DNA of 64,000 bases from Candidatus Aenigmatarchaeota archaeon (lineage in GTDB: Archaea; Aenigmatarchaeota; Aenigmatarchaeia; QMZP01; JAFGSV01): assembly GCA_016931255.1 (NCBI GenBank), contig JAFGFG010000009.1, forward strand, positions 24,543 through 88,542, written 5' to 3'. Every line of letters starts with the position of its first letter. Position 1 is the stretch's first letter. The notes under the pieces are model-generated. The model did no database searches and was not told the DNA's origin. It saw nothing but the letters and a program-made list of their open reading frames with translations. The translations under genes and the position numbers were made by a program. Positions 24,420 through 52,422 of this stretch are shown here, in pieces.

Positions 24420-24427
24420 GTGATTAG

Positions 24428-24865: not shown

Positions 24866-24869
24866 TTTA

Positions 24870-25205
24870 ATGGCGGCATTCGAGACCATGGTACGGTTTC
24901 TTGAGTCACTTGGTGTCTTCAATTACCTTGCTTTCGTTCTTCTTATCACAATTCTCTATTACTCTTTCGAATACATTCTCAGGAACATAAAGGCGCTCGA
25001 AAAGAGGCAGACTCACAGGATGATACTGGCAGTAGTACTGTCAGTTGCCGTGACTGCGCTGATGTACGTCATTTTCTTTCCTGTGGCCGGCTCAGTAGGC
25101 ATGGTTGTCGCTGGTATTGTTTTCATATCTGCGGTTTTCTTCCTTCTGGCTGCAACAGGCATGAGGCTCGGAGGAATGGACATTCCCTCCCTTTTTCGGA
25201 AGTAA
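24870..25205 (+). CDS. small membrane protein, probable paralog of neighbours
   Basis: MAAFETMV...YLAFVLLITILYY; about 3 TM. Confidence 0.7.
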   Translation: MAAFETMVRFLESLGVFNYLAFVLLITILYYSFEYILRNIKALEKRQTHRMILAVVLSVAVTALMYVIFFPVAGSVGMVVAGIVFISAVFFLLAATGMRLGGMDIPSLFRK

Positions 25206-25255
25206 CCGGCTCAATACCATGAAAGTTTATAAGTCTTCCCACGCAATAACATTTT

Positions 25256-25816
25256 ATGGGACTATTCGAAACAATGGTTCAGAACATGCAGAGGATGGAG
25301 TTCTTCCAGTATCTCTTCCCATTCCTGCTCGCATTCGCTCTTCTTTACGGGCTTATGCAGTGGGCATTCAAAGAAAACCTTGGCGGTAGGAGGGTGCATA
25401 CGCTCATAGCGATTATTCTTTCATTCTTCGTAATGCTTTATTCGAGCTACAACACATGGCTTTTCGCGCTCCTTACAACCACTTCAGGCATATGGCTTGG
25501 GCTTGCAACAGTTGCACTTCTGTTAGTGCTCTTCGCACAGCTCCTTGGCATAGACATAGGTTCAATGCTGAGTGGCGCCGGGGGAAGCAAATACCCATGG
25601 ATAAAGTGGATAATCCTCCTCATCATTGTCTGGATCGTTCTGTCAGCGTTCCTTGGATACGCAGGTATGTCAGCATGGCTTCCATACTGGCTTACAGGCA
25701 GTGATCTTTGGACAGTGCTTCTCGTAGTCGTCATCATAGGTGCAGTCTTCTACTTCGTTGGTGAAGACAGCGGCAAATCCAGCGGTGGCAGCGACGATAA
25801 GGCGAAACCGAGTTAA
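25256..25816 (+). CDS. multi-pass membrane protein (LPFLL..A..YG family)
   Basis: MGLFETMV...LFPFLLAFALLYGLMQ; about 5 TM. Confidence 0.75.
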   Translation: MGLFETMVQNMQRMEFFQYLFPFLLAFALLYGLMQWAFKENLGGRRVHTLIAIILSFFVMLYSSYNTWLFALLTTTSGIWLGLATVALLLVLFAQLLGIDIGSMLSGAGGSKYPWIKWIILLIIVWIVLSAFLGYAGMSAWLPYWLTGSDLWTVLLVVVIIGAVFYFVGEDSGKSSGGSDDKAKPS

Positions 25817-26967: not shown

Positions 26968-27354
26968 TTACTCAGGTGCCTTATCTGGCTGCCCTGCAAG
27001 CCGTGGGAGGATTGACTCGAACAGCTTTACTGTCTCCTCAACCCTCTTCAGCTCACTCTTCTTTACCATGAACTGGAGCTGCTTCACAACCTCCTTCAGT
27101 GTGTTATTGACTGTATTCGTTTTCTCGTCGAGAGCTGTCATCTTTTCTTCAATACCCTTCAGCCTGACATCAAGTGATTCAAGCTTTCCTGAGAACGATT
27201 CATCAAGAGAGCTTATCCTGCTGGTGAGAATCCTTTCCCTTTCCTCAATGAGCCTGAGCCTCTTTGTGTTGTCGTTGACCCTTCCGACGATTTCGTTGAC
27301 TATCGGCGCTCCGCCCTTCTTCTTTCCTGAAGACTGCTCATTCATGACAGGCAT
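26968..27354 (-). CDS. coiled-coil protein
   Basis: Heptad-rich RLRLIEERERILTSRISSLDE...ELKRVEETVKLF. Confidence 0.7.
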   Translation of the reverse strand: MPVMNEQSSGKKKGGAPIVNEIVGRVNDNTKRLRLIEERERILTSRISSLDESFSGKLESLDVRLKGIEEKMTALDEKTNTVNNTLKEVVKQLQFMVKKSELKRVEETVKLFESILPRLAGQPDKAPE

Positions 27355-27439
27355 AATATCAAACTCCGGTTATTTTTATTTAGTCTGCCACAATATAAAA
27401 GTACACAGAGATTTGAACAGCAGTTCAGGTGACCGGTTT

Positions 27440-29686
27440 ATGGCTTCAGGCGAATACACGTATGATGAAGACGAGCAGAAGCTCAGGCTCAATTATCTCG
27501 GTTCTGCTTTTGGCGCGAGTGTGGAGGATTATGCCGAATGCATGGCAGATGTCATAGACAAGATTCTCGAGGTCAAGAGCGTCAGGACAATAATACTGAC
27601 CAAGGACAGGGAATACGAGTACGGTCCGGACCAGACTAAGATGCTTGTGGAGATATCCAATGTCATAGAGGATGTCGTCCGTGAGAGGCTCACAGGAAGG
27701 ATAAAGGCAGCTGACAACCTCCAGAAGCGAATGATACCCGAGATGAACGCGCGTGTTCAGGAGATTGTGCTGAACCTCCTGAGGCGGGACCCCATAGGCG
27801 CCTATGTCGAGGTCATACGCGAGATGAGGCGCGTCAAGATAAAGGCAAAGCATACCAATCAGAAGAGCGTTTATGATTTCTACGTGGACTATCTGAAGAA
27901 TGTTCTCAATGTGCTGAAGACCAAGCTTGAGGCAACACAGATAATAAAGCTCGCAAAGCCTCACATAGCCGGATATACGCAGGGCGACAGGTCTCTCTAC
28001 CGTGAGATGTTCGTTCCGAGCATACGGCCTAACTTCATGCTCACCCGTTACATGATAACACCTCCTGAGAACGGCAGGTCTGTCAAGAGGTACAATGTAG
28101 GCGACACGGAAGTGGAGATTTTCAAGCTTCCTGACAGGGCTGAATACTTCTACTATGTTCTGCCTCCCGAGTTCATTCTCAGCGAAGAGAAGTATGCTGT
28201 GCTGGATTCCGCGCGGAGGTACATGGCTACCCATAGGCCGAAGGATGCTGAATTCGTCAGAACAGGAAAAATACGCGAGGTCTTCTTTAGCATAGGAAGG
28301 GACATGATACGGGAAGTGGCCGACCAGCAGAGGGTGCACCTGACATCAAAGGACATCGAGCAGCTTGCCACCATACTTACAAGGTATACAGCAGGCCTTG
28401 GCGTTCTCGAGATACTGCTTGCTGACGAGAAGATTCAGGACGTGTACGTCAACTCTCCTGTTGAGTCACAGCCCATACTGATAAACCATTCGGAGTTTGA
28501 GGAGTGCAGGACCAATCTCATACCGACGCAGGATGATGCCGAGGCATGGGCTACAAGGCTGAGGATGCAGTCTGGAAGGCCTCTGGACGAGGCCAATCCT
28601 GTATTGGACACTGATGTGTCTGTTCCGGGAGGGAATGCAAGGTTCTGCGTAATCACGAGAACGCTGTCTCCGCATGGCCTTGGCTTTGCCATAAGGAGGC
28701 ACAGGGACAAGCCATGGACGCTGCCGCTTTTCATAAACGCCAAGATGCTCACGCCTCTGGCTGCCGGCACACTTTCATTCCTCATAGACGGCACAGCGAG
28801 CATGCTGGTCGCAGGTGGGAGGGGCGCAGGTAAGACATCCATGCTTGCGAGCATAATGCTTGAGATACTGCCGAAAACAAGGATTGTCACCATAGAGGAT
28901 ACACTTGAACTGCCTGTGGACCAGCTCAGGGACATAGGATATAACATCGAGCGCCTGAAGTCCCGTTCTGTCCTGACAATGGTGGAAACAGAAGTGGCCT
29001 CGGACGAGGCTCTCAGGACTGCGCTAAGACTTGGTGATTCTGCGCTGGTTGTGGGCGAAGTCAGGTCAACGGAAGCCAGAGCCCTGTACGAAGCCATGAG
29101 AATAGGTGCGCTTTCCAATGTGGTTATGGGCACAATCCACGGCGAATCAGCTTATGGTGTCTTTGACAGGGTCGTGAATGACTTGGAAGTTCCCATGACA
29201 TCATTCAAGGCCACTGACATAATTCCCATATGCAAGAGCCTCCGTTCTGCTGACGGTCTCCACCGTTTCAGGCGAATGACAGAGATAACAGAAGTCCGCA
29301 AGAAATGGGAAAAGAACCCTGACAAGGAAGGCGGCTTCGTCAACCTTTTCGAATACTCCGCAAAAGAGGATGAGATGAAGCCTACGGATACACTTGTCAA
29401 CGGCGAATCCGAGACACTGAACAGGATTTCAAGCTACGTCAGGGAATGGCACGGCGACTGGGCAGCTGTGTGGGAAAACATAAAACTCAGGGCTGACATC
29501 AAGAAGGCCATGGTGGAAATGAGCATCAGGACGAAACGGCCTGAACTGATGGAGGCGGAATGGTGCGTGAAGTCGAATTCCATGTTCCACCTTTTCTCAG
29601 AAATCACGCAAAAGGATGTCGGGGCAGTTGAGGCAAAGACAGTCTACGATGAATGGCTCAAGTGGTTCAGGAGCAGCATAAGGTAA
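27440..29686 (+). CDS. type II/IV secretion / pilus assembly ATPase with long N-terminal extension
   Basis: AGGTGA RBS; GGRGAGKT Walker A, TIEDTLEL, LRLGDSALVVGEVRS, GTIHG. Confidence 0.93.
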   Translation: MASGEYTYDEDEQKLRLNYLGSAFGASVEDYAECMADVIDKILEVKSVRTIILTKDREYEYGPDQTKMLVEISNVIEDVVRERLTGRIKAADNLQKRMIPEMNARVQEIVLNLLRRDPIGAYVEVIREMRRVKIKAKHTNQKSVYDFYVDYLKNVLNVLKTKLEATQIIKLAKPHIAGYTQGDRSLYREMFVPSIRPNFMLTRYMITPPENGRSVKRYNVGDTEVEIFKLPDRAEYFYYVLPPEFILSEEKYAVLDSARRYMATHRPKDAEFVRTGKIREVFFSIGRDMIREVADQQRVHLTSKDIEQLATILTRYTAGLGVLEILLADEKIQDVYVNSPVESQPILINHSEFEECRTNLIPTQDDAEAWATRLRMQSGRPLDEANPVLDTDVSVPGGNARFCVITRTLSPHGLGFAIRRHRDKPWTLPLFINAKMLTPLAAGTLSFLIDGTASMLVAGGRGAGKTSMLASIMLEILPKTRIVTIEDTLELPVDQLRDIGYNIERLKSRSVLTMVETEVASDEALRTALRLGDSALVVGEVRSTEARALYEAMRIGALSNVVMGTIHGESAYGVFDRVVNDLEVPMTSFKATDIIPICKSLRSADGLHRFRRMTEITEVRKKWEKNPDKEGGFVNLFEYSAKEDEMKPTDTLVNGESETLNRISSYVREWHGDWAAVWENIKLRADIKKAMVEMSIRTKRPELMEAEWCVKSNSMFHLFSEITQKDVGAVEAKTVYDEWLKWFRSSIR

Positions 29687-29721
29687 TTTTTTTCTTTAAA
29701 GAAAACGAACAAATAATTAAC

Positions 29722-31821
29722 ATGTCGTTTTTCAGCAGGAAGAAGAAGGCTCCTCAGGCACCTGCTTACAGCACCGGCCAGCTTGATCCCAGAATGATAA
29801 ACATCTCATCAAGGGAGTACAGGCTTTACCGCAGCAAGTCGGAATTAAGGCTGAACTGGTATGAGCAGCTGGCCAAGTTCGCTGTCGGCATAATAAATGT
29901 GAGTTTTGACAAGAAGACCACGGATGACATAAATGCCGCAATAGACTTCACAGGACTGCGCATAAAGCCGAATGCGCCGACAGCTCTGTTCCTGATGAGC
30001 ATTATATTCTTCTCGTTCCTCGGAGGATTCCTGTTTGCGCTGAGGATAGTCCCGACAGCCTATGGAGTGATTGCATCAGTGATACTCGGGCTTGCTGTCG
30101 GGTACTTCCTGATGTCGTATCCGAAAAGCCATATGAAGACGCTCCGCATACAGGCAAGCTCGCAGGTCGTCCTTGCGATACTCTACATGGTGGTGAGCAT
30201 GAGGATATCGCCGAATGTCGAGCGCGCGCTGAGGTTCACGTCGTCCAACATATCAGGCATGCTTGCATGGGACATGAGAAGGCTCCTGTGGGACATAGAG
30301 ATGGGAAAATACTACTCAGCCAACGAAGCGCTTGCGAATTACATCGTCAAGTGGAAGCCTGAGAACGAGGAATTCTCGGAAGCGCTGAGAATGATAGTGG
30401 ATTCGCAGAGCCAGATCCAGGAAAAGGCTGAAAAGACTTTGGACGAGGCGCTCAGGGTTGTCCTTGAAGGGACGAGGGACAGGATGAAGCACTATGCGCA
30501 GGACCTTCAGATGCCTGTCACCATGATTCACATGATGGGCATAGTCCTTCCGATACTCGGCTCTGTGATGGCTCCGATGGCAGCAATTTTCCTGTCAGAC
30601 ATGATTACGCCATGGCATTTCCTTGCCGGATACGACATACTGCTGCCCATTCTGCTTGTGTGGTTCATAAACAACACGCTGAGCAAGCGTCCTGTGACAT
30701 TCTCAAAGATAGACGTCTCGCAGCATCCGAGCCTTCCGCCGCCGGGAAGCTTCATGATCAGGAGCGGTAAGAAGAGGATAATAGTGCCCGCATTACCCAT
30801 AGCGCTCCTTGTGGGGGCCCTCATACTAATAATGCCTGTGCTGTATTTCGCTGAGCATTCAGAATTTCTCATAGTCCCGATGGTCGATGACGGCAGTGGA
30901 AACATGGTGCCGTCTGAAATCCAGGACCCGGCTCCGGATACGACTCTCCTTATGTCCATACTGATAACAGTAGGAGCCGGAGCGTCGCTGTCCATATACT
31001 TCCTCCTCTCCAATCTCCAGCGCTCGCGAGTCGAGGCCACTGTATACAAGATGGAATCTGAATTTGAACTGGCTCTTTTCCAGCTGGGCAACAGGATATC
31101 CGGCGGCACACCTCTGGAGATAGCTGTTGAGAAGGCTGCTGTGGATGTGAAGGACATGGAGATTTCCAATCTCTTCCAGATTGTCCTGAGGAACATGCGC
31201 AACTTCGGGATGACATTCGAGAACGCGCTGATGAATCCCCAGAGCGGCGCGCTGAGATTCTACCCGAGCAGGCTGATACAGAACGTGATGAGAACCATAA
31301 CAGACACCGCCAGGAAGGGCGTGCAGTTCGCTTCGGAATCCATGCTCACTGTATCCAAGTACCTGAAAAGCGTGAGGGAGACACAGGAATACATGAGGAC
31401 GCTGCTTTCTGAAACCACGAGCAGCATGCAGTTCCAGGCTTATGGAATGGCACCGCTCGTGAGCGGCCTCATAGTGGCAATGTCCAGCGTCATCATACAG
31501 ATCATAGGATTCCTCGGCACCAGGCTCAACGAGTTCGGCCTGCAGGACAGCTTCGGCATAGACCCGAGCTCTATACTGGGGTCATCAAGTGCTGTGACCC
31601 CCGCGATGTTCCAGCTCATAATGGGAACGTACCTCATAGAGGTGATAATAATCCTTGCCATGTTCGTGACCAAGGTCAACAGGGGGGATGACAAGTCGAG
31701 CCAGTGGCTGCTGGCCGGAAAGATGATATTTATAGCTGTGATAATATACTCCATGGTTGCAATAGGCTCAAGTATGATGTTCGGCAGCATGATAGAGGAT
31801 GCGATGAGGACACTCGCGTAA
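29722..31821 (+). CDS. TadC/GspF/ArlJ-like pilus membrane platform protein (two fused repeats)
   Basis: Directly follows the ATPase; ILYMVVSMRISPNVERAL and LFQLGNRISGGTPLE repeats; many TMs. Confidence 0.82.
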   Translation: MSFFSRKKKAPQAPAYSTGQLDPRMINISSREYRLYRSKSELRLNWYEQLAKFAVGIINVSFDKKTTDDINAAIDFTGLRIKPNAPTALFLMSIIFFSFLGGFLFALRIVPTAYGVIASVILGLAVGYFLMSYPKSHMKTLRIQASSQVVLAILYMVVSMRISPNVERALRFTSSNISGMLAWDMRRLLWDIEMGKYYSANEALANYIVKWKPENEEFSEALRMIVDSQSQIQEKAEKTLDEALRVVLEGTRDRMKHYAQDLQMPVTMIHMMGIVLPILGSVMAPMAAIFLSDMITPWHFLAGYDILLPILLVWFINNTLSKRPVTFSKIDVSQHPSLPPPGSFMIRSGKKRIIVPALPIALLVGALILIMPVLYFAEHSEFLIVPMVDDGSGNMVPSEIQDPAPDTTLLMSILITVGAGASLSIYFLLSNLQRSRVEATVYKMESEFELALFQLGNRISGGTPLEIAVEKAAVDVKDMEISNLFQIVLRNMRNFGMTFENALMNPQSGALRFYPSRLIQNVMRTITDTARKGVQFASESMLTVSKYLKSVRETQEYMRTLLSETTSSMQFQAYGMAPLVSGLIVAMSSVIIQIIGFLGTRLNEFGLQDSFGIDPSSILGSSSAVTPAMFQLIMGTYLIEVIIILAMFVTKVNRGDDKSSQWLLAGKMIFIAVIIYSMVAIGSSMMFGSMIEDAMRTLA

Positions 31822-31848: not shown

Positions 31849-34737
31849 ATGATTCTCAAGGGAGTCCTCGGAACTGAGATGACGCTGGGGAGCTTCACCA
31901 AGCTGCTCATGGTCGTCTTTGTAATGATTGGATTCACGCTCTTCATAACAGGCGTTGCCACGAACATGAACGAGACGACCAGCAAGGCCTGCCAGAAATA
32001 TCCGGAGCTTCCTTTCTGCAGTGGAAGTGAAGATGACATTTCAGCATTAAATGACAAGATTGCGGTGCATTCCACACAGGCTCTCGCATGCGCGATAAAA
32101 AGCGAGTGGCTTGGAAGGTCGCAGGAATGCGCCGTTGGAATAAACGACCTTCGCAATAGTGACGATCTCGCACAGCTTTCTGGAATGGACCTCAGTGACG
32201 AGGATTTCTACATTCCCAGTGAATTTGCCAAAGTCGAATGCCATGCGGTAACCACAGTCGAGAATCCCGGAAAATCCAGAATAATAGAATATGATGGAGG
32301 CATAGCCAGCGACAATGTCTGCTACCAGTACGTCGAGGGCACAGGATGGATGTGGAGTGACTGTGATGAGGAACTCCTTCCATTGTCAGACCAGCACCCC
32401 CCCGGCGTGAACAATCTTCCCCTTGTCCACGACTATTTCAGGGACAATGTCATTGCTTTCGGTAATACAAAGACCGAATCGTACAATTACCTTCTGGGGC
32501 TTTTCGAGGGAACGCTGAACGGCAATAACTATGCAGTGCTTGACGACAGCGGGAAGAGGCTTGTTTACAATGATGACACCGAGAAGATATCCAACGACAG
32601 GATAAGAGTGTGGCATTCCATGTCATTGGAGGAATATGAAAGCTCTTCATGGGCAGATAAGATTGCCAATGGAAAAGGAGGCTTCTGGGAAGGAGATGAC
32701 GACAGAATATTCGTGGAATTGATTGAAAGGTCTGGTCCTATTTATATGACATCGGGAACAGTGATCCATAAGCTTTATGAGCAACTGGATTATTACACTC
32801 CGGGAACTGCAGTCACGCTTGCAACCACGACATGCAAGGTGAGCGACTTCTACCTGCCCCAGGATTTTGACCAGATAAGGATATTGGGAATTACCATGGA
32901 TGAGCCGAGAGCATGGGTCGCAGGTTTCGGGGACCCTGAATACATCGTGTACTGGCAGGACTTCCCCCAGGGAGAAGACTATTCATGGACAAGCCTCGGC
33001 ACATGGCTTGATTCTGCACTTTTCGTCTTCTTTGCAGGAGCTCCTCTTGGCGCAATGGTAAAAGGCACAAAATACCTTATCAAGGGGGTCGGGAAGACAG
33101 TGATAAGCGAGGCAGGCGGCGCATTGGCATCAAAAGGAGATGATGTGATTTCATCCATGTTCAAAACGACCTCAGCAACAGACGAATCCATCCAGTATAT
33201 AATATACGAAGAGGGCGTGACCAAGGCAACAAGAAGGGCAGTCCTCACAGAAGCTGTCGAGAAGGGGTTCTTTTCCAAGGTTGTCACCAATATGAACAGC
33301 TACTACAAGGGACCGAGCACCACGTGGCTGTTCACCAAGGCTGGCGTGCTGACCGGGGCTGCCTGGGCGGCTGCCTACATTGACAGCCTCAATGAGAAGT
33401 TTATGAAGCAGAAGTCATCGATGGTCCTGAAGATTCCATTCGCTGACCCGCAGCTTTTCATGATAGAAGAGATGGCATCAGCGCCTGCTGACACGTCTTA
33501 TGACATATTCGGACCGGATACGTATCTCGGCCGCGAATCCGGCTCATACCCGCTTGGCATTGTCAGGCCTGTGATGCTCGACAAGACAAGCACCATCACG
33601 CTTACGGATGGAGGAGAAGGCCTTCAGAAGGATACGCTGTTCTATCTTGCATCGCCATGCCTTGCAGACCTTGACATAAAAAGGGAAACCATCTACTGCA
33701 GCAAGTATCTGTATAACTCAGCTGACCAGACATTCACGTGTTCAGACCCTATCTCAAGGGAAAGCGCGGAGAAAATGAAGGCACTTGGTTTCGAGGGTGT
33801 CAAGCCTTGCGGCTCTGCGCCTATAACTCTTGACGCTTTCCAGAACAACAGGCTTTTCAATGACAACAACAACGACGGAAAGTGGGATGAGGTTGTTGTC
33901 TATGGGCTGATAAATGAGATAGACTGGCTGAAGATAAGGGATATAGACTTCGACGGGACCTTCGACGGCTATGAAGCCAAGATAGGCAACAATATCATTG
34001 TATCCACTGGTGAGAAAACAGGAAAGATAGACATGGGGCAGGACGGCACGTTCGACTACACGTTCACCATCGTTGACAGGACATATGAAGTTGCCGGTTA
34101 TACAACAGAGATGGAGATAAAGGACATGTCCGGCAATTCTGTCAGCAATTCATGGTCATATCGAATGCAGGCGAAGGACCTCGTTGTATTCAGTGCGGTG
34201 GACAAGGAAAACATACTTCTGGGGCTTCCCATCGCCAGCGGCACCAATGTTGAAGATATGGAATTCACATTCCTTCACGGGACAAGTGCTGAATTCAAGG
34301 ACCCAGCAGACCCCGGCCCGCATCCGCTGAAGATAACGGATACCACAGGTGACGGTAAGATAGACACATTTTCAATGGGAAGGATGAGGCTTCTTGTCAG
34401 GGACACAACAGGGGACGGCTACTGGAATCGCTATGATGAGGACGATGACGGTCATCCTGATGTCTACGATTACGACAGGGAATACGGCACCATATACAGC
34501 CAATACTGCAGTATAGAAGGCATCACGATCACACCTGAGCTGAAGGAAATAGGCAAGGGGAATAATTTTTGCTACACCAGAATAAAAGAAGGACAAGCCA
34601 CAGCAATAATGGTTGGGTCTGCTGTTTTTGGAATTGTACTGGAGCAGTTTACAGGTGGCGTAGCGTCAGCAATCGTGGTAGGCATAGTCAATACTGGAAT
34701 CGCGTATGCACAGATGCAGGTCAAGAACTGGCCGTGA
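31849..34737 (+). CDS. giant pilin-like protein with Ca-binding DxDxDG-type repeats and hydrophobic hairpins
   Basis: MILKG|VLGTE then TM (class III-like, Glu at +5); DNNNDGKWD, DIDFDGTFD, DMGQDGTFD, DTTGDGKID, DTTGDGYWN, DEDDDGHPD. Confidence 0.65.
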   Translation: MILKGVLGTEMTLGSFTKLLMVVFVMIGFTLFITGVATNMNETTSKACQKYPELPFCSGSEDDISALNDKIAVHSTQALACAIKSEWLGRSQECAVGINDLRNSDDLAQLSGMDLSDEDFYIPSEFAKVECHAVTTVENPGKSRIIEYDGGIASDNVCYQYVEGTGWMWSDCDEELLPLSDQHPPGVNNLPLVHDYFRDNVIAFGNTKTESYNYLLGLFEGTLNGNNYAVLDDSGKRLVYNDDTEKISNDRIRVWHSMSLEEYESSSWADKIANGKGGFWEGDDDRIFVELIERSGPIYMTSGTVIHKLYEQLDYYTPGTAVTLATTTCKVSDFYLPQDFDQIRILGITMDEPRAWVAGFGDPEYIVYWQDFPQGEDYSWTSLGTWLDSALFVFFAGAPLGAMVKGTKYLIKGVGKTVISEAGGALASKGDDVISSMFKTTSATDESIQYIIYEEGVTKATRRAVLTEAVEKGFFSKVVTNMNSYYKGPSTTWLFTKAGVLTGAAWAAAYIDSLNEKFMKQKSSMVLKIPFADPQLFMIEEMASAPADTSYDIFGPDTYLGRESGSYPLGIVRPVMLDKTSTITLTDGGEGLQKDTLFYLASPCLADLDIKRETIYCSKYLYNSADQTFTCSDPISRESAEKMKALGFEGVKPCGSAPITLDAFQNNRLFNDNNNDGKWDEVVVYGLINEIDWLKIRDIDFDGTFDGYEAKIGNNIIVSTGEKTGKIDMGQDGTFDYTFTIVDRTYEVAGYTTEMEIKDMSGNSVSNSWSYRMQAKDLVVFSAVDKENILLGLPIASGTNVEDMEFTFLHGTSAEFKDPADPGPHPLKITDTTGDGKIDTFSMGRMRLLVRDTTGDGYWNRYDEDDDGHPDVYDYDREYGTIYSQYCSIEGITITPELKEIGKGNNFCYTRIKEGQATAIMVGSAVFGIVLEQFTGGVASAIVVGIVNTGIAYAQMQVKNWP

Positions 34738-34767: not shown

Positions 34768-34947
34768 ATGGAAGTCACAATGGGGGTTGTCATAACAGCC
34801 ATAATAATTCTTGTAGCAGGGCTTGTCTTTGCCACTCTCATATTCGGCTGGAGCGGTGATGCCCGTTTATGGATGGAAAGCGTGATTTCTCCATTCCAGG
34901 ACAGCCTCACCGGCGACAGGGTCACGGACCAGACCGTGAAGCCTTAA
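34768..34947 (+). CDS. 59-aa pilin-like membrane peptide
   Basis: Manual ORF MEVTMGVVITAIIILVAGLVFATLIFGWSGDARLW... Confidence 0.55.
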   Translation: MEVTMGVVITAIIILVAGLVFATLIFGWSGDARLWMESVISPFQDSLTGDRVTDQTVKP

Positions 34948-34986: not shown

Positions 34987-35298
34987 ATGAAAGGACTTTC
35001 GATGACGCTGAGCATAGTCATTGTGGCTATAGTTCTTCTCGTGACAGCCTTGGTTGTACTTACGATATTCGGCGGGCAGATGTCAAGATTTCTGAGCATT
35101 TTTGGTGGAGTTCAGGATGAGGCAGTTCTGCAGAGTGCATGTAATCAGAGATGTGCATCCTATTGCATGGGTCATCTGAATGACAACCTGAATGCATATT
35201 CTTGGACAAGCATGGGTTCAGTTAAGGATGCCAATGGAAAAGATGCACTGTGTTCCGATGTAATGAATGGAATATCAGACCAGTGCACATGCCTGTAA
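34987..35298 (+). CDS. pilin-like protein (candidate major pilin)
   Basis: MKG|LSMTLSIVIVAIVLLVTALVVLTIF; Cys-rich small head; own TATA-like box. Confidence 0.75.
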   Translation: MKGLSMTLSIVIVAIVLLVTALVVLTIFGGQMSRFLSIFGGVQDEAVLQSACNQRCASYCMGHLNDNLNAYSWTSMGSVKDANGKDALCSDVMNGISDQCTCL

Positions 35299-35334: not shown

Positions 35335-35988
35335 ATGAAGGCTTCATTTCCCGGCATCAATACGTGGCTATGGACGATTCTTACCATAATAGTGGTCGCA
35401 ATGGCTCTGTACTGGGCAATGGGCCAGTTCGACAACATGGAACTGTCAAAAGCAACAGGAAGCACGGACCTTGCTATAGACACGGTCGTCTACTCAGAGG
35501 CGTATCCCCAGGTTTCCCAGAGCCAGATGGTAAGATACCTTCAGGATAACGGTGGGGAGCAGCTGAAGGACAAGGGACTTGCATTTTACAGGCTCGGTGT
35601 CCAGTACAATACTGACCCGGCATTCGCTGTGGCTGTCTCAAGGAAGGAGACATCGCTTGGGAAGGACACGTGCCAGCACATAAGCAGTGACTGCAACAAC
35701 TTCTTCTGCATCAAGGACACTACTGGAAATAGTCCCTGCGGCATATGGGCATCATATGCAACGCCTGAGGACAGCATTGATGCGTTCTACAAGCTTATTG
35801 AGTATTACAAGGAAAGGGGGCAGGATACCATAAGCGAGATTGCATGCGGTCCTGGCTCAGGGTTCAGCCACAGCTCAGGTGATTACTGCTACTGCGAGAA
35901 GGGAGGCTCTTTCTGCCCTACATGGGTAAGCGGCACGTCAAGCGTGCCTGCATTCACAGCGGAAATCCGTAACTATATGGCAGTATGA
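35335..35988 (+). CDS. pilin-like protein with GH73 glucosaminidase / lysozyme-like domain
   Basis: MKA| then TM; YNTDPAFAVAVSRKETSLG...NNFFCIK...YATPEDSIDAFYKLI. Confidence 0.72.
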   Translation: MKASFPGINTWLWTILTIIVVAMALYWAMGQFDNMELSKATGSTDLAIDTVVYSEAYPQVSQSQMVRYLQDNGGEQLKDKGLAFYRLGVQYNTDPAFAVAVSRKETSLGKDTCQHISSDCNNFFCIKDTTGNSPCGIWASYATPEDSIDAFYKLIEYYKERGQDTISEIACGPGSGFSHSSGDYCYCEKGGSFCPTWVSGTSSVPAFTAEIRNYMAV

Positions 35989-36161: not shown

Positions 36162-36776
36162 ATGAAAAAGGGAAACGAACTGATGGCGAAGCCCCTCATG
36201 GCAGTGATGAGCCTGATCCTTTTCATCATGGTGCTGGTTTTCATGTATATCCAGCTCTCTTCAATCCTTTCTGGACCCTGCTGGAAGGAGACAATGAAGG
36301 GGCTTGAATTCTTCAAGAGGGAGACAAACGACGACCCAAGGCTCGTTATGGACCCTGAATGCATGGAAAAGACAATCTTCACTTCCAGTCCCGTTGTCTG
36401 CAAGCTGGCGTGCAGCAGGATTGATGACGGGGAGAGGATGAGGGAGTGCTCGGCCAAGTGCTCAGTCAATGCTTCCGACAGCGGAAAGACATTCATAATA
36501 GCTGTCCCACTGGACAGGGGGATTCTTAAGAGAACATCGCAGGCTGTAAGCAATCGCAATGTCGAATGGATATTTCCAGACAAGATGGAGGTTTTCGTTG
36601 CTGACTGTACAATAAGCGACCTGGCAGGATTCACCGGCGAAGACGGGAACAGCGTCTGCACGAAGGACGGCAATTCGTGGGAATGCTTCCCACAGGAAGA
36701 ATCTGCGACATACCTGCTCAAGATGACAGTCAGCACAGGAGACATTTGCACCATTGAAGGGCTAAGGACTGTTTAG
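36162..36776 (+). CDS. pilin-like Cys-rich protein
   Basis: MKKG|NELM then TM; many Cys. Confidence 0.65.
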   Translation: MKKGNELMAKPLMAVMSLILFIMVLVFMYIQLSSILSGPCWKETMKGLEFFKRETNDDPRLVMDPECMEKTIFTSSPVVCKLACSRIDDGERMRECSAKCSVNASDSGKTFIIAVPLDRGILKRTSQAVSNRNVEWIFPDKMEVFVADCTISDLAGFTGEDGNSVCTKDGNSWECFPQEESATYLLKMTVSTGDICTIEGLRTV

Positions 36777-36789
36777 CGTTTGTGGTCTT

Positions 36790-37224
36790 ATGGAAAGCAG
36801 CAGAAGCATGGTTGCGGTTATATTCGCCCTGATACTCGTAATGATATACTGGGTTGCGTGCGTATACGTACTTAACCCAATCCTTCGCGCGGAAAGCTCG
36901 TATGTTGAGCAGAAGATGTCATTCTACATAGATACGATGTCTTCTGTGAGCAGCGGCTCAGTCAAAGTGGAGATACCAAAGAACACTGTCAGCGCAATAA
37001 GCGTTGAGAAGCTCGCTAAAGGTGATTACGATGACTACACGATTCCTGAAGACGGCTGGTACGTGGTGGTAGCATACAGGATTGCAGGAACTCTGAACAA
37101 AGGCGTAAGCAGGATAAACTCGTACCCTGATGACGACAATATCAGAAAGACATTTACGTCCCCTGAAGACTTCTGCATAATAAAGAATGCGGACATGGAT
37201 TACGCGGTGGTGGGAAAATGCTGA
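36790..37224 (+). CDS. membrane-anchored protein, probable minor pilin
   Basis: N-terminal TM then beta-rich domain; operonic. Confidence 0.55.
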   Translation: MESSRSMVAVIFALILVMIYWVACVYVLNPILRAESSYVEQKMSFYIDTMSSVSSGSVKVEIPKNTVSAISVEKLAKGDYDDYTIPEDGWYVVVAYRIAGTLNKGVSRINSYPDDDNIRKTFTSPEDFCIIKNADMDYAVVGKC

Positions 37225-38051
37225 AAGGGCAGCTGGACATAGACATAGAGTTCATGGGAGGAACCATAATATTCGTGTTCTTCGCGATGATATTCTTCTC
37301 GATGCTTCTCTTCCCGATAGTCGCCAACAGCAGCGTGACATCAAGGGTTCACAATTCAGTGGACCAGCTCTCTTTCTCAAACCTAGCTGAGGCTTACATA
37401 GAGAGGGACTACGCCAACGAGAACGGAGTGCCGGATTTCCTCAGGATGTCTCTGGACACGAACCTGCTTAAATCGTTCCGTAATTTTGTGCTTTTCGAGC
37501 AGATTCCGTCAGGAAGGTTCATATTTCCAAAATATTCAGTGATGAGCATGAATCCGGATGATTCGATCGGGCATGATACATACGGCATAACGTGGACTGG
37601 TTTCGAGAACACAAAGCCCGGAGACATACTGATACCTGTCGGCAAGATTTCGCTTGTCGATGTCCACAGGAATGGCTCGCTTGTCATAATCGATGTGTAT
37701 GATTATCCCAGATGCTCGACAGGCACTTCAGAAAGAACCGGCCTCACAGTGTATCCGCTGTGTTCATCAGTGTCTGAAGCCAGTATCGTAGACTCGGAAT
37801 CAGCACGCGACGAACTCATACTTTCAGTCATAAACGGCGCATTTCCCGGCACGGTATTCTTCATGCGCGCAGCCAAAGACATAATGGTTTCTGACATCAT
37901 GCAATCCTTCAAGGGATATGTGAGCGCGACGTGCGAAGACAGCGGGGAACATAATGTTTGCATAAGAAAATTTAGTGATTACACTACTGCCACGAGGATT
38001 CATGTTGAAATTACTCCAGGAGGTTTCTTTTGGTATGAAAGCGGCGATTAA
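37218..38051 (+). CDS. pilin-like protein
   Basis: MLKG|QLDIDIEF then TM; overlaps both neighbours. Confidence 0.68.
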   Translation: MLKGQLDIDIEFMGGTIIFVFFAMIFFSMLLFPIVANSSVTSRVHNSVDQLSFSNLAEAYIERDYANENGVPDFLRMSLDTNLLKSFRNFVLFEQIPSGRFIFPKYSVMSMNPDDSIGHDTYGITWTGFENTKPGDILIPVGKISLVDVHRNGSLVIIDVYDYPRCSTGTSERTGLTVYPLCSSVSEASIVDSESARDELILSVINGAFPGTVFFMRAAKDIMVSDIMQSFKGYVSATCEDSGEHNVCIRKFSDYTTATRIHVEITPGGFFWYESGD

Positions 38052-39090
38052 CCTCATAGGCCTGGTGACAATAGGCACAGCACTGGCAGCTGTTATAATC
38101 ATGATACACGGTGTTCCGCATGCATCTGAGATGATCAAGGTGAACTCAGAGACATCGGCCTATATCAACGTCAACGACGAGACATCGAAGCTCATGCCGA
38201 TACTCGAATCAGGCAACATCAGCTTTGCTGCAATAGACCAGCTTGCATGCGATGTCCTCGGAATCACATACCACTATCAGGATGACTACATCGATGCTGT
38301 ACTCAAATCCATGGATGCAGGAATCATAGTTTACGCAGGAGGTATGGAGAAGAAAACATACGGCAATGAGAAGAGCGACAAACTGTTCGCTGATATACCT
38401 CTTCCCGGAGGGAAAATCGGAAACATCGCGCTCATGGTCGACATACCGCGGTCAATTTCAGAGGCAAGCTTCGGCTCCAATTGGATATGGCCGCTTGAGA
38501 CACTCACCGGTATGCATGTCAGTCACTGCTACGGCGAATACAGAGAGCTCAGCGACGGCTCAACCTATACGCATTCCGGTGTGGACCTTGGCGGTAATAT
38601 CGGAGACAATGTGCATGCCGTGGCTGACGGAGAAGTCATATTCGTATGCGATAATGATGAGAGAGAACTGACAGATGAGGAGAAGAACGCACGCATAAAG
38701 GGTAACTGCAGCGGATACGGTAACAACATAATAATAAAGCACGCTGGCCTGTATGCCAGATATTCGCATCTGCACACGGAAAATGGCGTGCTCGTCTCAG
38801 TAGGGGACATAGTCACGCAGAATCAGATTATTGGCAGGATGGGAAGCACGGGCCGTTCCTTCGGCGCGCATCTCGATTTCAAGGTGTATTCATACGAACC
38901 CTATGCCAATGGCGCGTCAGGATATGATGCCAATATAGACCCACTCTGCATGTACACGCCTGAATATCTTAAGAACGTAGTGAAGCTCACGTACGAGGAA
39001 AATGACAAGGACTGCCAGCAGTCGAAGCTGTGCATAAAGTACAGGCCGTCCATTTACACAGACATTGTCGAGGAGGACCTTACAATATAG
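38035..39090 (+). CDS. pilin-like protein with C-terminal M23 metallopeptidase domain
   Basis: MKA| then TM; WIWPL..., HSGVDL (HxxxD), AVADGEV, GYGNNIIIKH, YSHL, GSTGRSFGAHLDF. Confidence 0.88.
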   Translation: MKAAINLIGLVTIGTALAAVIIMIHGVPHASEMIKVNSETSAYINVNDETSKLMPILESGNISFAAIDQLACDVLGITYHYQDDYIDAVLKSMDAGIIVYAGGMEKKTYGNEKSDKLFADIPLPGGKIGNIALMVDIPRSISEASFGSNWIWPLETLTGMHVSHCYGEYRELSDGSTYTHSGVDLGGNIGDNVHAVADGEVIFVCDNDERELTDEEKNARIKGNCSGYGNNIIIKHAGLYARYSHLHTENGVLVSVGDIVTQNQIIGRMGSTGRSFGAHLDFKVYSYEPYANGASGYDANIDPLCMYTPEYLKNVVKLTYEENDKDCQQSKLCIKYRPSIYTDIVEEDLTI

Positions 39091-39098
39091 GTGATGCT

Positions 39099-39929
39099 AT
39101 GCGAAAAGGAAATGTTGCTAATATAGTGTATGCAGCGGGGTTGGTTATAATGTTTATTATAAGCGTTTATTACATTCTTCCTGCTCTCTCGAACACTGAT
39201 AAGAATCCTGTCATGGTGATGGTGGACAATACAGTTTACCTACTCAAGGATTCCGCAGAGGTCGCGAAGTCATTTGTGGACAATTCAGCCCGGTATTCAC
39301 TCTATCAGGCGGTGTATTCCAATTCACTGAAAGGCGGCATGAATCAGACAGTAAATGCTGTCAGCATAGGCGGTACAACATATGAGCTATGGTATGACGG
39401 TGCAGATGTCTCGCCTGACGAGGTGAGAATAAAGGAAGAGCTGCGCAAGACTTTCAGTCATTGGTTCTCCATGTATGTGGGGCGCAGTGTGATAAAGGCA
39501 TTTACACCCGTCATGCCACCGAAATACAACGATTTCACATTCAGGAATGACGGATACTACCATACAGGTGTTTTTGCTGAATCGGATGATGTCATGCGTG
39601 CACAGATGACAATGGAGAATGGCGATGCGCTCACAGTGTCTGTGAATGCTGACATAAACATGAGCCTTCCAATACCTTACTTCCTGCTTGTCAGTGAAGG
39701 CAGGGAATTCAAGGACGACATAAAGGGCCAACTGACAAACTGCAGCTCAGAACTTACGAAATCTTACGAAAAGCCAGAACTTATTTTCTCTTCAATGGCA
39801 ACAATTTCCGATGGATATTGCATAGTCGCTGTTGATATCACGAGCAAGAGGGAATTTTTAGTATGGGACGGAAGTGCGTCTTTCAAACCCATAACCCTCA
39901 GATTCGCCATGCGCCAGTCAATGAGCTGA
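39099..39929 (+). CDS. pilin-like protein
   Basis: AGGTGA RBS; MRKG|NVANIVY then TM. Confidence 0.65.
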   Translation: MRKGNVANIVYAAGLVIMFIISVYYILPALSNTDKNPVMVMVDNTVYLLKDSAEVAKSFVDNSARYSLYQAVYSNSLKGGMNQTVNAVSIGGTTYELWYDGADVSPDEVRIKEELRKTFSHWFSMYVGRSVIKAFTPVMPPKYNDFTFRNDGYYHTGVFAESDDVMRAQMTMENGDALTVSVNADINMSLPIPYFLLVSEGREFKDDIKGQLTNCSSELTKSYEKPELIFSSMATISDGYCIVAVDITSKREFLVWDGSASFKPITLRFAMRQSMS

Positions 39930-43775: not shown

Positions 43776-45326
43776 TTACCTTTCCAGAATAAAGTATTTC
43801 GGGTGGTCCATAACCCTGGGTATCTTCTCAAGCAGCATGTCGTACTTCTTTCCGACACCGACTGCCCTTACTGACTGGGCTATCTCCAGCGCCCTTTCAA
43901 GCTTGTACTTCTTCTCAGCATAGATATCAAAGAGAGTGTCACCCTTCTTTACAGTGTCACCAATCTTCTTGTGAAGGTAAATTCCTGCGCCCTTGTCTTT
44001 TGGCGTGCCGGATGCCCTTGCTATCTCGACTATGGCACGGTTGTCTATCCATCCGACAACACCGCTGACAGATGATTTTACCTCAACCTTCTCAGGACCT
44101 ATAGGAAGGTCGTCCGGCTTTATGTTAGGGTCCCCGCCCTGCGCTTCTATTATCTCCTGAAGCTTTTTGTAGGCCTTTCCGCTCTTGAGCAGGCGAAGTG
44201 CTTCTTCTTTCCCGCTCTTTTTCATCTTGAAGTCAAGGAGCATTCCCGCTATTGTGGTTACCTTGTCCACGATATCCTCAGGTCCCCTCCCGTACATAAG
44301 CGTGCTGAGGGCCTCCCTTGCCTCGAGCGCCGGTCCTATTCCGTGGCCAATTGGCTGCTCGCCGAATGTGGACGCTCCCACTGTCTGTATTCCAAGCTTC
44401 TTTCCGAGAGTTATGAATTTCTCAGCCAGCGCTTCTGCGTCTTTTGTTGTTTTCACTTTCGTGCCTTCACCTGTGGGTATGTCTATGACAAGATACTTTG
44501 CCCCAACTGCCTTTTTCTTTGACATCACAGACGGCAGAAGAAGGGGGTCTATGGAAAGCGGATACTCGATTTTTATGAAAATGTCATCAGCAGGTGCGAG
44601 GTCCACAGCGCCTCCCCATACAAGGCATGCGTTCACCTTCTTTACAACGCGCTTGATTTCCTCAAGGTTGAGGTCTACAGGAGCCAGGCATTCGAACCTG
44701 TCTGCTGTTCCCGCGGGGGATGTTATTGCCCTGCTCGATGTCTTGGGTATCGTAAGCCCTGCTGCTCCTATCACAGGCACCACCATCATTGATGTCTTGT
44801 CACCCGGAACACCGCCTATTGAGTGCTTGTCGTAGATGTCCTTCTTTCCGAGGTCAAGCGTTTTTCCCGTCAGCGCCATGTGCCTTGAAAGCGATGCCAC
44901 CTCTGAAGTGGTCATTCCGTGATACTCGAGGGCTGTCACAAAAGCAGTGAGCTCTATTTCCGAGAGCCTCCGTTCAACCGTATCCTCGACAATCTTCCTT
45001 ATTGCGCTGTCATCGAGCGTCTTTCCGGCCATCTTGTCCTTTATGTACTTTATTGACATGGGTGGTGCTGATGGTATGACATCCACAAGCTGGTTAGGCT
45101 TGGCATTGGTATACCTTGAGATTTTTCTGTAAAGTCCAATCTCACCGCTCTTTATGAAATGCTCAGCGATGTTGACTATGCAGTTGACCTTTTTCCTGCC
45201 GACAATAAGCTCGACCCTGTCCAGAGGCCTTACGTCTATCTCTTCCGCATCCTCCTTGTTGAGAAGAACTATCGGCTTGTCAGCCTCAAGTCCGAGTATC
45301 TTTGCATTAAGCTTCATCATGACCAT
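43776..45326 (-). CDS. AMP phosphorylase
   Basis: DKHSIGGVPG, PKTSSRAITSPAGTAD, LAPADD, GPALEA; N-terminal extension typical of AMP phosphorylases. Confidence 0.95.
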   Translation of the reverse strand: MVMMKLNAKILGLEADKPIVLLNKEDAEEIDVRPLDRVELIVGRKKVNCIVNIAEHFIKSGEIGLYRKISRYTNAKPNQLVDVIPSAPPMSIKYIKDKMAGKTLDDSAIRKIVEDTVERRLSEIELTAFVTALEYHGMTTSEVASLSRHMALTGKTLDLGKKDIYDKHSIGGVPGDKTSMMVVPVIGAAGLTIPKTSSRAITSPAGTADRFECLAPVDLNLEEIKRVVKKVNACLVWGGAVDLAPADDIFIKIEYPLSIDPLLLPSVMSKKKAVGAKYLVIDIPTGEGTKVKTTKDAEALAEKFITLGKKLGIQTVGASTFGEQPIGHGIGPALEAREALSTLMYGRGPEDIVDKVTTIAGMLLDFKMKKSGKEEALRLLKSGKAYKKLQEIIEAQGGDPNIKPDDLPIGPEKVEVKSSVSGVVGWIDNRAIVEIARASGTPKDKGAGIYLHKKIGDTVKKGDTLFDIYAEKKYKLERALEIAQSVRAVGVGKKYDMLLEKIPRVMDHPKYFILER

Positions 45327-46555
45327 TTCCTGAGAGCCTGCGCAAGCTCATTATTATCTTTGGCATAATTCTTTAAATCGATGCCCTGCATTACTGCTTC
45401 AGCAGCCTGCCTTATCGCCATTGCGCCTTTCACTGTACCGCCGGGATGCCCGTGGCATCCACCGCCGAACTGGGCGATGATGTCTTTTCCCATCTTATTT
45501 ACAAGCTCCGGAAGCATGCCGGGTTCAAGCCCCCCCGATGCAACGGAGAATGTCCTTTTCAGGCCATGCCATTCATCATTTAGTGCATTCTGCAGAATTA
45601 TCGCGGGGTCTTCCTGAACCATCTTCCCAACGGATGCAGTTCCTATATGCAGCTGGTCCATTCCTATCATTCTGGAAATCCTTGAAATCACAAGCATGGA
45701 TATTCCGTGCTTAGGGTTCCGGTCAAATGCCGCATGCCCAGCTCTGTGCGCATGCATGACCATTTTCCAGTCCATGTTGCATTCCCGTATTGTCTGAAGT
45801 CCTGACCATCCCAGAGTGACTATGTCAACCATTATATACTCCCCACCATTGCTCATGACGAATTCTGCTCTTTTTTTCATTTCTTCTGTTTCCGCAGTGA
45901 TGTTAGGCATATAGACTTTCTTTTCACCGGTTTCATTTTCAGCCCTGTCCCGAAGCTTCAGCGTTTCTTTTATTCTCTTCTCAAATTTATTGAACCTCAT
46001 TGAGGAAAGGTTCTCATCATCCTTCACGATGTCAAGGCCTCCTCTCCATGCATCATAGGCAACTTTTGCGTGCTCCTTTTCATCAAGCCCTATCTTCGGC
46101 TTGACTATGGTTCCCAGAAGCGGTCTTTCATGGGTTTTGAGGAGAGTTCTTATTCCCTTTACTCCAACCTGTGGTCCCCTGAATGATTTAACTATATCCT
46201 TGGTAAAATGTATGTCATTAAGTCTGATGTTCTTTACATGCTTCATTCCGAAAATGTTCCCGCCCACTGAACTCATTATCTGGGGCACGTTTCCTTTTTC
46301 GAAAAGCTCTTCAGGATAAGCGATTTTCACGTTGTTGCCTTTTATTTCGAAGACCTTTGCGCCCATTTTCTGTATCTGCGGCTTCATTGTTGAAACTGCT
46401 GTCCACGTTCCTATGCTGGATTCCGCAGCCACATGCTCTGCTGCCTTTTCCACGTTGAGACCATGATTCGGCTCTATGTAGAAATCACATACAACATCGT
46501 TCTTTCCTGGCTTGTAATCAGGCTGTATGTATCCCGAGGGCTTTATGTTTGACAT
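45317..46555 (-). CDS. rbcL: RuBisCO large subunit, form III
   Basis: AAESSIGTW, GTIVKPKIGL, GGLDIVKDDE, HAHRAGH, loop-6 VGKM, SGG, GGGCHGHP. Confidence 0.95.
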   Translation of the reverse strand: MSNIKPSGYIQPDYKPGKNDVVCDFYIEPNHGLNVEKAAEHVAAESSIGTWTAVSTMKPQIQKMGAKVFEIKGNNVKIAYPEELFEKGNVPQIMSSVGGNIFGMKHVKNIRLNDIHFTKDIVKSFRGPQVGVKGIRTLLKTHERPLLGTIVKPKIGLDEKEHAKVAYDAWRGGLDIVKDDENLSSMRFNKFEKRIKETLKLRDRAENETGEKKVYMPNITAETEEMKKRAEFVMSNGGEYIMVDIVTLGWSGLQTIRECNMDWKMVMHAHRAGHAAFDRNPKHGISMLVISRISRMIGMDQLHIGTASVGKMVQEDPAIILQNALNDEWHGLKRTFSVASGGLEPGMLPELVNKMGKDIIAQFGGGCHGHPGGTVKGAMAIRQAAEAVMQGIDLKNYAKDNNELAQALRKWS

Positions 46556-46600
46556 ATTTCACCAATATATTCTATTCACATTTTTCAAATAAAAATCAAC

Positions 46601-47469: not shown

Positions 47470-47576
47470 GCGGAGATGGCCGAATGGCTCAGGCGATCGG
47501 CTGCAAGCGGTATGTATGCGTATTCGCCGATACCGTTAGAAACCGGTTCAAGGGGGTTCGATTCCCTCTCTCCGCT
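47470..47576 (+). tRNA. tRNA-Cys(GCA) with 35-nt intron at 37/38 (47507-47541); CCA not encoded
   Basis: Acceptor GCGGAGA/TCTCCGC, anticodon stem ATCGG/CCGGT, CT-GCA-A loop, TTCGATT T-loop, U discriminator. Confidence 0.9.
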
Positions 47577-51483: not shown

Positions 51484-51513
51484 TATTTAAGATTCTGAAA
51501 GGAAAACTATAAC

Positions 51514-51948: not shown

Positions 51949-51983
51949 AAGCAGTTCGAATCAATAATAAAAAGGGTAGAGAA

Positions 51984-52418: not shown

Positions 52419-52422
52419 AATC

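Follow-up and report, generated by a model that had tools for sequence, protein, structure and literature searches.

Why should an archaeon in whose genome no evidence of murein synthesis was found carry, in the middle of a type IV filament operon, a gene resembling those of bacterial cell wall hydrolases? The question is raised by a stretch of 64,000 nucleotides, hereafter the window, of contig JAFGFG010000009.1 (positions 24,543 to 88,542 of the forward strand) in assembly GCA_016931255.1 of a Candidatus Aenigmatarchaeota archaeon, a member of DPANN. The gene concerned, at 35335..35988 on the + strand (positions are those of the window unless another locus is named), starts with ATG and encodes a protein of 217 amino acids (aa), predicted to be a GH73-like N-acetylglucosaminidase with a pilin-like N-terminus. 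An initial annotation, made from the sequence letters alone, had described the product as a pilin-anchored glycosidase, displayed on the surface and directed against beta-1,4 murein. Our analysis favors a similar reading, namely a small ectoenzyme shown on the surface or on a filament and aimed at bacterial peptidoglycan, which we consider moderately probable on the basis of sequence comparisons and for which we infer both pilus incorporation and enzymatic activity. The operon context, unseen by the initial annotation, is the more interesting part of the finding and its value lies mostly there.

The GH73-Like Domain

The predicted protein comprises an MKA leader with a hydrophobic helix (residues 1-33, 35335..35433), which could be a class III-like signal or a membrane anchor, a flexible linker (residues 34-50, 35434..35484), whose length and sequence vary among relatives, and a catalytic GH73-like domain (residues 51-217, 35485..35985). 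The motifs quoted in the initial annotation were all recovered in the translation, i.e. DPAFAVAVSRKETSLG at residues 94-109 (bases 35614-35661), NNFFCIK at residues 121-127 and YATPEDSIDAFYKLI at residues 141-155, along with eight Cys at positions 113, 120, 125, 135, 171, 185, 187, and 194. The candidate catalytic Glu is Glu105 (codon GAG, 35647-35649), which is aligned with the catalytic Glu585 of LytB, located where the helix ahead of the Gly-rich turn ends. According to a study of LytB, Glu585 is the sole acidic residue essential in that enzyme (PMC4633669).

Assignment to the glucosaminidase (GH73) family was supported at the level of sequence, profile, and fold. The Pfam Glucosaminidase hidden Markov model (PF01832) matched residues 84-160 with an E-value of 1.4e-5, although the score of 26.2 bits lies under the gathering score of 30.2; in a six-frame search of the genome with the same model the gene scored 27.1 bits. 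A single-sequence phmmer search against the PDB returned noise only (HIV gp120, E 0.13 or worse), so that a family profile was needed. The profile, built from an 11-row alignment of GH73-like relatives, retrieved 13 PDB sequences at E<=1, 12 of which are GH73 peptidoglycan hydrolases, with pneumococcal LytB at the top (E 1.2e-8); the E585Q mutant chain of LytB carries its Q in the Glu105 column of the alignment. The GH73-like family is small. A word-based search of 5.8 billion clusters yielded 10 proteins at E<=1e-3, eight of them with a precomputed PF01832 annotation, and an exhaustive library contained 91 representatives at E<=1e-3 (17 at <=1e-10 and four at <=1e-30).

The AlphaFold2 model of the protein (mean predicted local distance difference test score, pLDDT, of 75.3; predicted template modelling score of 0.69) shows a compact domain joined to a helix (residues 6-33) by a linker that was modelled with low confidence (pLDDT <50 for residues 30-48). 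The lysozyme-like fold expected by the initial annotation was found, since in a Foldseek comparison with the PDB ranks 1-14 were all occupied by GH73 enzymes (LytB, AtlE, Atl, Acp, Ecd09610, and SagB). VIA-align superposed model residues 45-217 on LytB residues 524-677 with Z 15.7 and a root-mean-square deviation of 2.5 A over 146 aligned residues, followed by AtlE (Z 14.0) and Ecd09610 (Z 13.8), while FlgJ, Auto, and TM0633 were placed at about Z 9-10 (FlgJ at 9.1-9.8). All matches with Z of at least 9.2 (ranks 1-19) are murein hydrolases. In a viral structure library the top matches were phage glucosaminidases and tail lysins, with 10 matches at E<=0.001.

Conservation was assessed in an alignment of 23 sequences, comprising seven from the genus, nine further short forms, and seven domains cut from long proteins. 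Asp94, Glu105, Asn122, Phe124, Tyr186, and Trp197 are invariant in all 23, as is the DPAFAVAV..E motif around the general-acid Glu. On account of this invariance and the E-values of the PF01832 and LytB profile matches, the motif match is beyond chance. GH73 enzymes carry an NxFGI(K/T) motif, which is also visible in the aligned LytB sequence; in the corresponding NNFFCIK, Asn122 and Phe124 are kept throughout and Cys125 takes the place of Gly in 17/23 sequences. Cys113, Cys120, and Cys125 are jointly present in these 17 sequences, 16 of which also have Cys135, and jointly absent from the other six, which keep the canonical Gly at position 125. Such joint gain or loss is compatible with two additional disulfides and thus supports the extracellular, disulfide-stabilized domain suggested initially. 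A conserved acidic residue is absent from the short, length-variable lobe after NNFFCIK across the 23 sequences, a condition shared with LytB and Atl and unlike FlgJ. Glu105 would act as the general acid and, since no second acidic residue is conserved in this lobe, would probably do so by a substrate-assisted, LytB-like route.

A Pilin-Like N-Terminus Within a Type IV Filament Operon

Judging from the predicted products, the GH73-like gene is the sixth of eleven genes in a co-directional operon of the type IV filament type, all on the + strand. The operon opens with an assembly ATPase of 872 aa (27068..29686; PF00437 T2SSE, 58.9 bits), whose top NCBIfam match is FlaI-like (139.8 bits, far under the cut-off), and a polytopic platform protein of 722 aa (29653..31821), TadC/PilC-like, with several hydrophobic segments and a weak T2SSF match. 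Residues 448-584 of the platform protein align to another T2SSF protein of the window (E 2e-6), constituting a second T2SSF-like repeat. A 962-aa protein follows (31849..34737), with an MILKG leader, a predicted N-terminal helix, and a C-terminal hydrophobic segment; Pfam and NCBIfam scans assigned it to no family and in an Atlas search all template modelling scores were <0.3. Next come a 59-aa protein with an N-terminal helix (34768..34947) and a 103-aa candidate major pilin (34987..35298; MKG/LSMTLSIVIV..., the slash separating leader and helix), which directly precedes the GH73-like gene. Downstream of the latter are a 204-aa pilin-like protein with an MKKG leader (36162..36776), a 144-aa protein with an N-terminal helix and without a KG leader (36790..37224), and three pilin-like carriers, each with a leader and helix: one of 277 aa (37218..38051; MLKG/QLDIDIE), one of 351 aa ending in an M23 peptidase domain (38035..39090; MKA/AINLIGL; PF01551, 68.2 bits; the ATG at 38035 was checked), and one of 276 aa (39099..39929; MRKG/NVANI). 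Alba and enolase genes lie 3' of the operon. AT-rich, TATA-like stretches were seen by eye upstream of 34987 and 35335.

In the GH73-like protein itself MKA precedes a single hydrophobic stretch (about residues 5-33), which gives it the short basic [KR][GA] leader directly before a hydrophobic helix that characterizes class III signals. All seven genus sequences had an M[KR][GA] leader, two of them if an internal Met of the listed open reading frame (ORF) is taken as the start. The same organization recurs in its neighbors: the nine products encoded 3' of the platform gene all show a single hydrophobic segment at the N-terminus, with [KR][GA] just ahead of it in seven of the nine by eye. Under a loose leader plus helix rule, six of the nine qualified, compared with 41 of the 227 ORFs with a hydrophobic N-terminus genome-wide. 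The genome also encodes an A24 prepilin peptidase (PF01478; a 282-aa ORF in the region of G000 C2:222479-222823, scoring 29.6 bits, above the gathering score of 26.5), so that peptidase, assembly ATPase, and platform protein are all present, the last two within the GH73 operon itself. The term "pilin-anchored" is therefore plausible as regards leader, helix, and genomic setting, but the model lacks a pilin head, and its N-terminus is better described as a carrier helix than as a complete pilin.

The 41 ORFs fitting the loose rule, out of 1081 in the genome, are in many cases clustered and several are very long (1427 and 2103 aa among them). Going by these predictions, pilin-like surface proteins make up an unusually large share of a 0.93-Mb genome.

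Conserved Gene Order and Exchanged Enzyme Domains

The locus was compared with six fetched loci from other species of the genus (seven genus loci including the window). Gene order from the 962-aa protein to enolase was identical in all six, the KG leader and helix of the candidate major pilin were kept in all of them, and so were the genes for the 204-aa and 144-aa proteins. The 59-aa gene has an ortholog in four loci and was not detected in the other two. The ATPase and platform genes were present wherever the contig extends that far. The GH73-like proteins of different genus species share 42-49% identity, and 91% with the nearest species. Matches were obtained in eight of 10 genus genomes, the present one included; completeness is rated at 76 and 84% in the two that gave none. 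In the phylum as a whole the family profile found matches in 17 of 371 genomes, which in two cases were confined to the N-terminal helix.

The gene order is fixed, but the enzymes are not. The slot of the M23 carrier is occupied by M23 in four of the seven genus loci and by Peptidase_M15_4 (58-67 bits) in three (L019:12328-13296, L020:6012-6986, and L022:6560-7543). The M23-type and M15_4-type carriers have a homologous N-terminal scaffold of about 150 residues, and in sequence terms one head seems to have been neatly swapped for another on a common carrier. The AlphaFold model obtained for the M23 carrier with a 7-row alignment could not be used, its mean pLDDT being 43.1, and a word-based homology search with its scaffold (residues 1-175) returned the self-match only. 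The remaining carriers vary as well: in genome G272 the ortholog of the last, 276-aa carrier is a 1203-aa protein with PKD, YkuD, and Amidase_3 domains, while in G271 the ortholog of the 277-aa carrier has 483 aa and an SLT-like end (20.1 bits; gathering score 21.3).

The GH73 domain also occurs within long open frames (1,022-2,014 aa) in other families belonging to the class. One giant Aenigmatarchaeota frame combines GH73 with M23 and Amidase_3 among pilin-like genes and beside an SLT protein, and another combines GH73 (53.3 bits) with VanY. When 24 more distant phmmer relatives were scanned, 13 passed the PF01832 gathering score, and PF01832 was found together with Amidase_2 in two proteins, Amidase_3 in one, and M15_4 in one. 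All catalytic modules fused to the GH73-like domain or encoded in its operon (M23, M15_4, VanY, Amidase_2/3, YkuD, and SLT) thus belong to families that act on murein.

Six of nine related loci in named genome records are Candidatus Aenigmatarchaeota. Another related locus (L035; 50% identity over residues 68-187) is recorded under an uncultured Methanosarcinales archaeon, a placement that could reflect a binning error or a transfer. In one genome of the same genus (G273, L024:130-3915) the ortholog of the operon ATPase has 1261 aa and contains an intein inside its T2SSE domain (Intein_splicing 100 bits, LAGLIDADG_3 49.5 bits).

Host Genome and Murein Synthesis

The genome comprises 929,379 bp in nine contigs, is rated 93.2% complete and 0.04% contaminated, and holds one GH73 and one M23 match. 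Searches of this 93%-complete genome with Mur_ligase_M, Transpeptidase, and FTSW_RODA_SPOVE gave no match at E<=0.1, while the same searches on 14 control genomes gave matches in 13, 10, and 10, respectively. Amidase_3 was likewise without a match at E<=0.1, with eight of the 14 control genomes matched. Within the limits of a 93%-complete genome, we thus found no sequence evidence for the synthesis of murein or of Mur-ligase-dependent pseudomurein. Murein as the target, proposed initially, gains indirect support from the M23 partner, the swapped murein hydrolase heads, the domain fusions, and the lack of matches to three murein synthesis families.

The window encodes RPA and RtcB as well as TFIIB, aIF2-alpha, aIF5A, RadA, Pus10, RLI, and Alba; on the strength of the latter seven and of the gene order kept in relatives, the possibility of a bacterial contaminant contig was rejected. 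A prophage endolysin was also considered and rejected, given that the chromosomal gene order is conserved in related species.

A weak SLT match (14.4 bits, E 0.016) lies elsewhere in the genome, in a 308-aa frame (G000 C8:16292-16507, locus L040), and may represent a further diverged murein hydrolase.

Proposed Mechanism and Alternative Explanations

A mechanism may be proposed as follows. The protein would insert by its N-terminal helix, and the A24 peptidase would perhaps trim it after Lys2-Ala3; we propose such processing and filament display because leader and helix are class III-like and the gene lies in a type IV filament operon. The ATPase and platform protein would then display the GH73-like protein on a short filament or at its tip, or else in a surface assembly resembling the bindosome, with the 103-aa pilin as the main building block. 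Being flexible and about 17 residues long, the linker would let the enzyme reach the bacterial wall, where GH73 would cut glycan strands and the M23 (or M15) partner the peptide bridges, so that the wall of a host or prey would be opened. A bolder version, which we put forward tentatively and would not yet call probable, is that the operon builds a murein-breaching type IV filament whose minor subunits are carrier helices with interchangeable wall-cutting heads, drilling the sacculus of a bacterial host. The heads would be GH73 with M23 or M15, joined in some species by a lytic transglycosylase, an amidase, or YkuD.

Several observations weigh against our reading. The sequence score remains below the PF01832 gathering score, an NCBIfam scan of the protein gave no match, and the domain is rare, with 15 of the phylum's 371 genomes possessing it. 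In the window protein NxFGI has Cys for Gly, and the GH73 "YATD" motif is not recognizable, (H/D)CY(C/V) standing in its place across the clade. As the YATD motif is absent from the clade, the protein is filed here as a diverged GH73 relative rather than a typical member, a classification drawn from its sequence. The study of LytB terms YATD highly conserved in GH73, but also describes AtlWM as able to do without the Asp of this motif and LytB as needing it only in part (PMC4633669). Both changes were also seen in relatives that pass the gathering score (e.g., P0018, 54.6 bits). As to display, MKA/SFPG seems to depart from the class III cleavage pattern (Szabo et al., 2007; FlaFind), the AlphaFold2 model shows helix, disordered linker, and enzyme with no pilin head ("lollipop"), and the T2SSF match of the platform protein is weak (16.5 bits at residues 177-308). 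The M23 partner, finally, is unusual. M23 peptidases normally have HxH at the second metal site, where HLD (H-L-D-F/M-K-V) was found in all five M23-type sequences (the window, L021, L023, L024, and L028). The HxxxD motif (HSGVD) is intact. Because HLD replaces HxH, the activity of this partner, which appears to carry a conserved zinc-ligand variant, is uncertain.

The main rival explanation relies on the same chemistry and dispenses with the pilus machine. In a plain signal-anchored ectoenzyme the helix would stay uncleaved as an anchor, and the enzyme, held on the archaeal membrane or under the S-layer, would hit the bacterial wall on contact or act on debris. The missing pilin head speaks for it, as does the leader, which is unlike the canonical K/R-G/ISP leaders of the second pilus locus in the window, and the loose leader rule is not very specific in view of the 41/227 ORFs that satisfy it. 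Yet the M[KR][GA] leader is kept in 7/7 genus sequences, the slot between the candidate major pilin and the other pilin-like genes is fixed in all six fetched loci, and archaeal substrate-binding proteins, made of a helix and a functional domain, are described as depending on a type IV filament-like system (PMC13705601). We therefore regard simple anchoring as rather unlikely, though deserving serious attention, and the favored reading of surface or filament display directed at bacterial murein is retained.

The other alternatives, which concern substrate and function, are all much less likely than simple anchoring. That the substrate is a different N-acetylglucosamine polymer, such as chitin, an N-glycan or S-layer glycan of archaea, or pseudomurein if the host were a methanogen, would agree with the historical Pfam family name (endo-beta-N-acetylglucosaminidase of glycoproteins), with the lysozyme-fold chitinases among the fold matches (Z 8.2-8.7), and with the missing YATD motif. 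However, every fold match at Z of at least 9.2 is a murein hydrolase and the fused or operon partner modules are all murein-acting, which makes this quite improbable. As pseudomurein is linked beta-1,3 and contains L-amino acids only, M15/VanY partners specific for D-Ala would make no sense against it. An autolytic, housekeeping role, in which the enzyme clears the archaeon's own envelope for its own filament, has a precedent in the bacterial FlgJ, reported to couple a GH73 domain to filament assembly (PMC4752226), and would suit a GH73-like gene within a filament operon. It is nevertheless very unlikely, because with no Mur ligase, penicillin-binding protein transpeptidase, or SEDS (shape, elongation, division, and sporulation) gene found in the 93%-complete genome there would be neither murein nor Mur-ligase-dependent pseudomurein of its own to clear. 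Least likely of all is a catalytically dead, lectin-like module that binds walls for adhesion only; the subthreshold Pfam score and the Gly-to-Cys and YATD changes would fit it, but the general-acid Glu and its surrounding motif are invariant, and the same changes occur in P0018, which scores well above the threshold.

If the reading of a filament with murein-cutting heads is true, this Aenigmatarchaeota genus would be a cross-domain episymbiont or predator of bacteria, and its filament the first of type IV to be functionalized with enzymes rather than with adhesins or binding proteins. Should the enzyme lyse sacculi and sit on a filament, archaeal type IV filaments would be known to display enzymes, and a physical attack on bacteria by an archaeal lineage would have direct molecular support. 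To our knowledge, the cultured examples of DPANN live on other archaea. With eleven genes, two of them for small enzymes that should express readily, the locus would represent a compact apparatus, and the small cysteine-rich GH73 domain may interest those seeking compact lysins.

Comparison With Known Systems

By profile and fold the closest known protein is LytB of Streptococcus pneumoniae (PDB 7pj3 and 4q2w), with which the window protein shares the aligned general-acid Glu and the short lobe after NNFF that has no conserved second carboxylate, in line with the substrate-assisted mechanism proposed for LytB (PMC4633669). LytB, however, is a bacterial autolysin acting on its own wall, with choline-binding, SH3b, and WW modules, whereas the window protein is archaeal, has a pilin-like N-terminus and a block of four extra Cys, and lacks both YATD and a wall-binding module. 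FlgJ resembles it in another respect, as its GH73 domain is fused to a flagellar rod-cap domain and thereby tied to a filament-assembly machine, an analogy that suggests wall cutting where a filament grows. FlgJ differs in belonging to a bacterial type III flagellar system and cutting its own wall from inside, while here a foreign wall would be cut from outside, and its long beta-lobe is described as contributing a second catalytic acid (PMC4633669). Phage tail lysins and tape-measure glucosaminidases likewise place a GH73-fold domain on a filamentous device and cut the wall from outside, but they are viral structural proteins, whereas the gene studied here is chromosomal and belongs to a conserved cellular operon beside Alba and enolase.

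With regard to display, the modular type IV pilins of S. sanguinis (PilB with a vWA and PilC with a lectin module) are encoded in a pilus locus and carry their module via a linker on a pilin-type N-terminus (PMC8179133). They are bacterial and have a full pilin module (IPR012902), in contrast to the helix-only archaeal protein. The accompanying survey includes one peptidase architecture, and the word "hydrolase" is absent from its main text (PMC8179133). The substrate-binding proteins of the Sulfolobus bindosome are similar in having a class III-type leader and helix directly before the functional domain (PMC13705601, PMC3047682) and in that functional proteins that are not pilins rely on an ATPase and a platform protein of type IV filament kind (PMC13705601). 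There the cargo consists of binding proteins of ATP-binding cassette transporters, not of enzymes (PMC13705601). The same 2026 survey reports thousands of substrate-binding proteins on class III leaders and describes ordered type IV filament loci as rare in DPANN; the words enzyme, hydrolase, and peptidoglycan do not occur in its main text (PMC13705601). The operon ATPase scored 54.1 bits against BasE (NF053672; cut-off 1000) and is not BasE-type, and the resemblance to the bindosome (Bas, Sulfolobales) is, by this analogy, one of logic only.

Murein-cutting enzymes have already been published for DPANN archaea, mostly as giant proteins. Giant SLT-domain proteins have been described in Woesearchaeota and Pacearchaeota (PMC8204110, PMC9723730), and in the haloarchaeon Halogranum salarium Woldo (M23) and Danwoldo (PF01832 with PG_binding_1) are reported to kill bacteria (PMC12352652). 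In all these cases murein-less archaea possess murein hydrolases thought to act on bacteria, and Danwoldo belongs to the same Pfam family as the window protein. The published enzymes differ in being either Tat-secreted and modular with wall-binding domains or up to 3,000 aa long, and in the text available a pilin-like nature and an origin in a pilus operon are reported for none of them (PMC12352652, PMC8204110, PMC9723730). A survey of modular peptidoglycan hydrolases would probably miss the window protein, with its lack of a wall-binding domain and its score under the gathering score. In the literature searched, which excluded subscription journals and supplements (e.g., S10 Fig and S4/S5 Tables of PMC13705601), no prior description was found of an archaeal pilus operon whose pilin-like carriers bear GH73 or another murein hydrolase, or of this small GH73 family. 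What appears to be new is thus the diverged, minimal GH73 domain on a pilin-like carrier inside a pilus operon.

Additional Features of the Window

Just upstream of the operon, at 23754-25816, lie four co-directional genes for small membrane proteins without a family. Two of these look paralogous by eye (MAAFETMVRFLE... and MGLFETMVQNMQ...), and the last of the four is kept beside the operon in loci L020, L021, and L023. A second, separate type IV filament locus is located at 49714-54129 and comprises two T2SSF proteins (59 bits each), two 144-aa pilins with the textbook leaders MVRKG/ISPVVAV and MRKQKG/ISPLVAV, and, on the opposite strand, a 568-aa T2SSE ATPase with a PilB3_C end. Four T2SSE matches above the gathering score were found in the 0.93 Mb of the genome.

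The tRNA-Arg called by ARAGORN at 45448-45546 falls inside the RuBisCO gene described below and is probably false. An Rfam search identified a tRNA of 107 nucleotides at 47470-47576 (42.4 bits), long enough to hold an intron and missed by ARAGORN. Finally, genes for an AMP-phosphorylase-like protein, the large subunit of a form III-type RuBisCO, and an IF-2B-family protein (ribose-1,5-bisphosphate-isomerase-like) are grouped at 43776-47428. This set constitutes a nucleotide-salvage pathway already reported for DPANN, and its presence fits a scavenging lifestyle.

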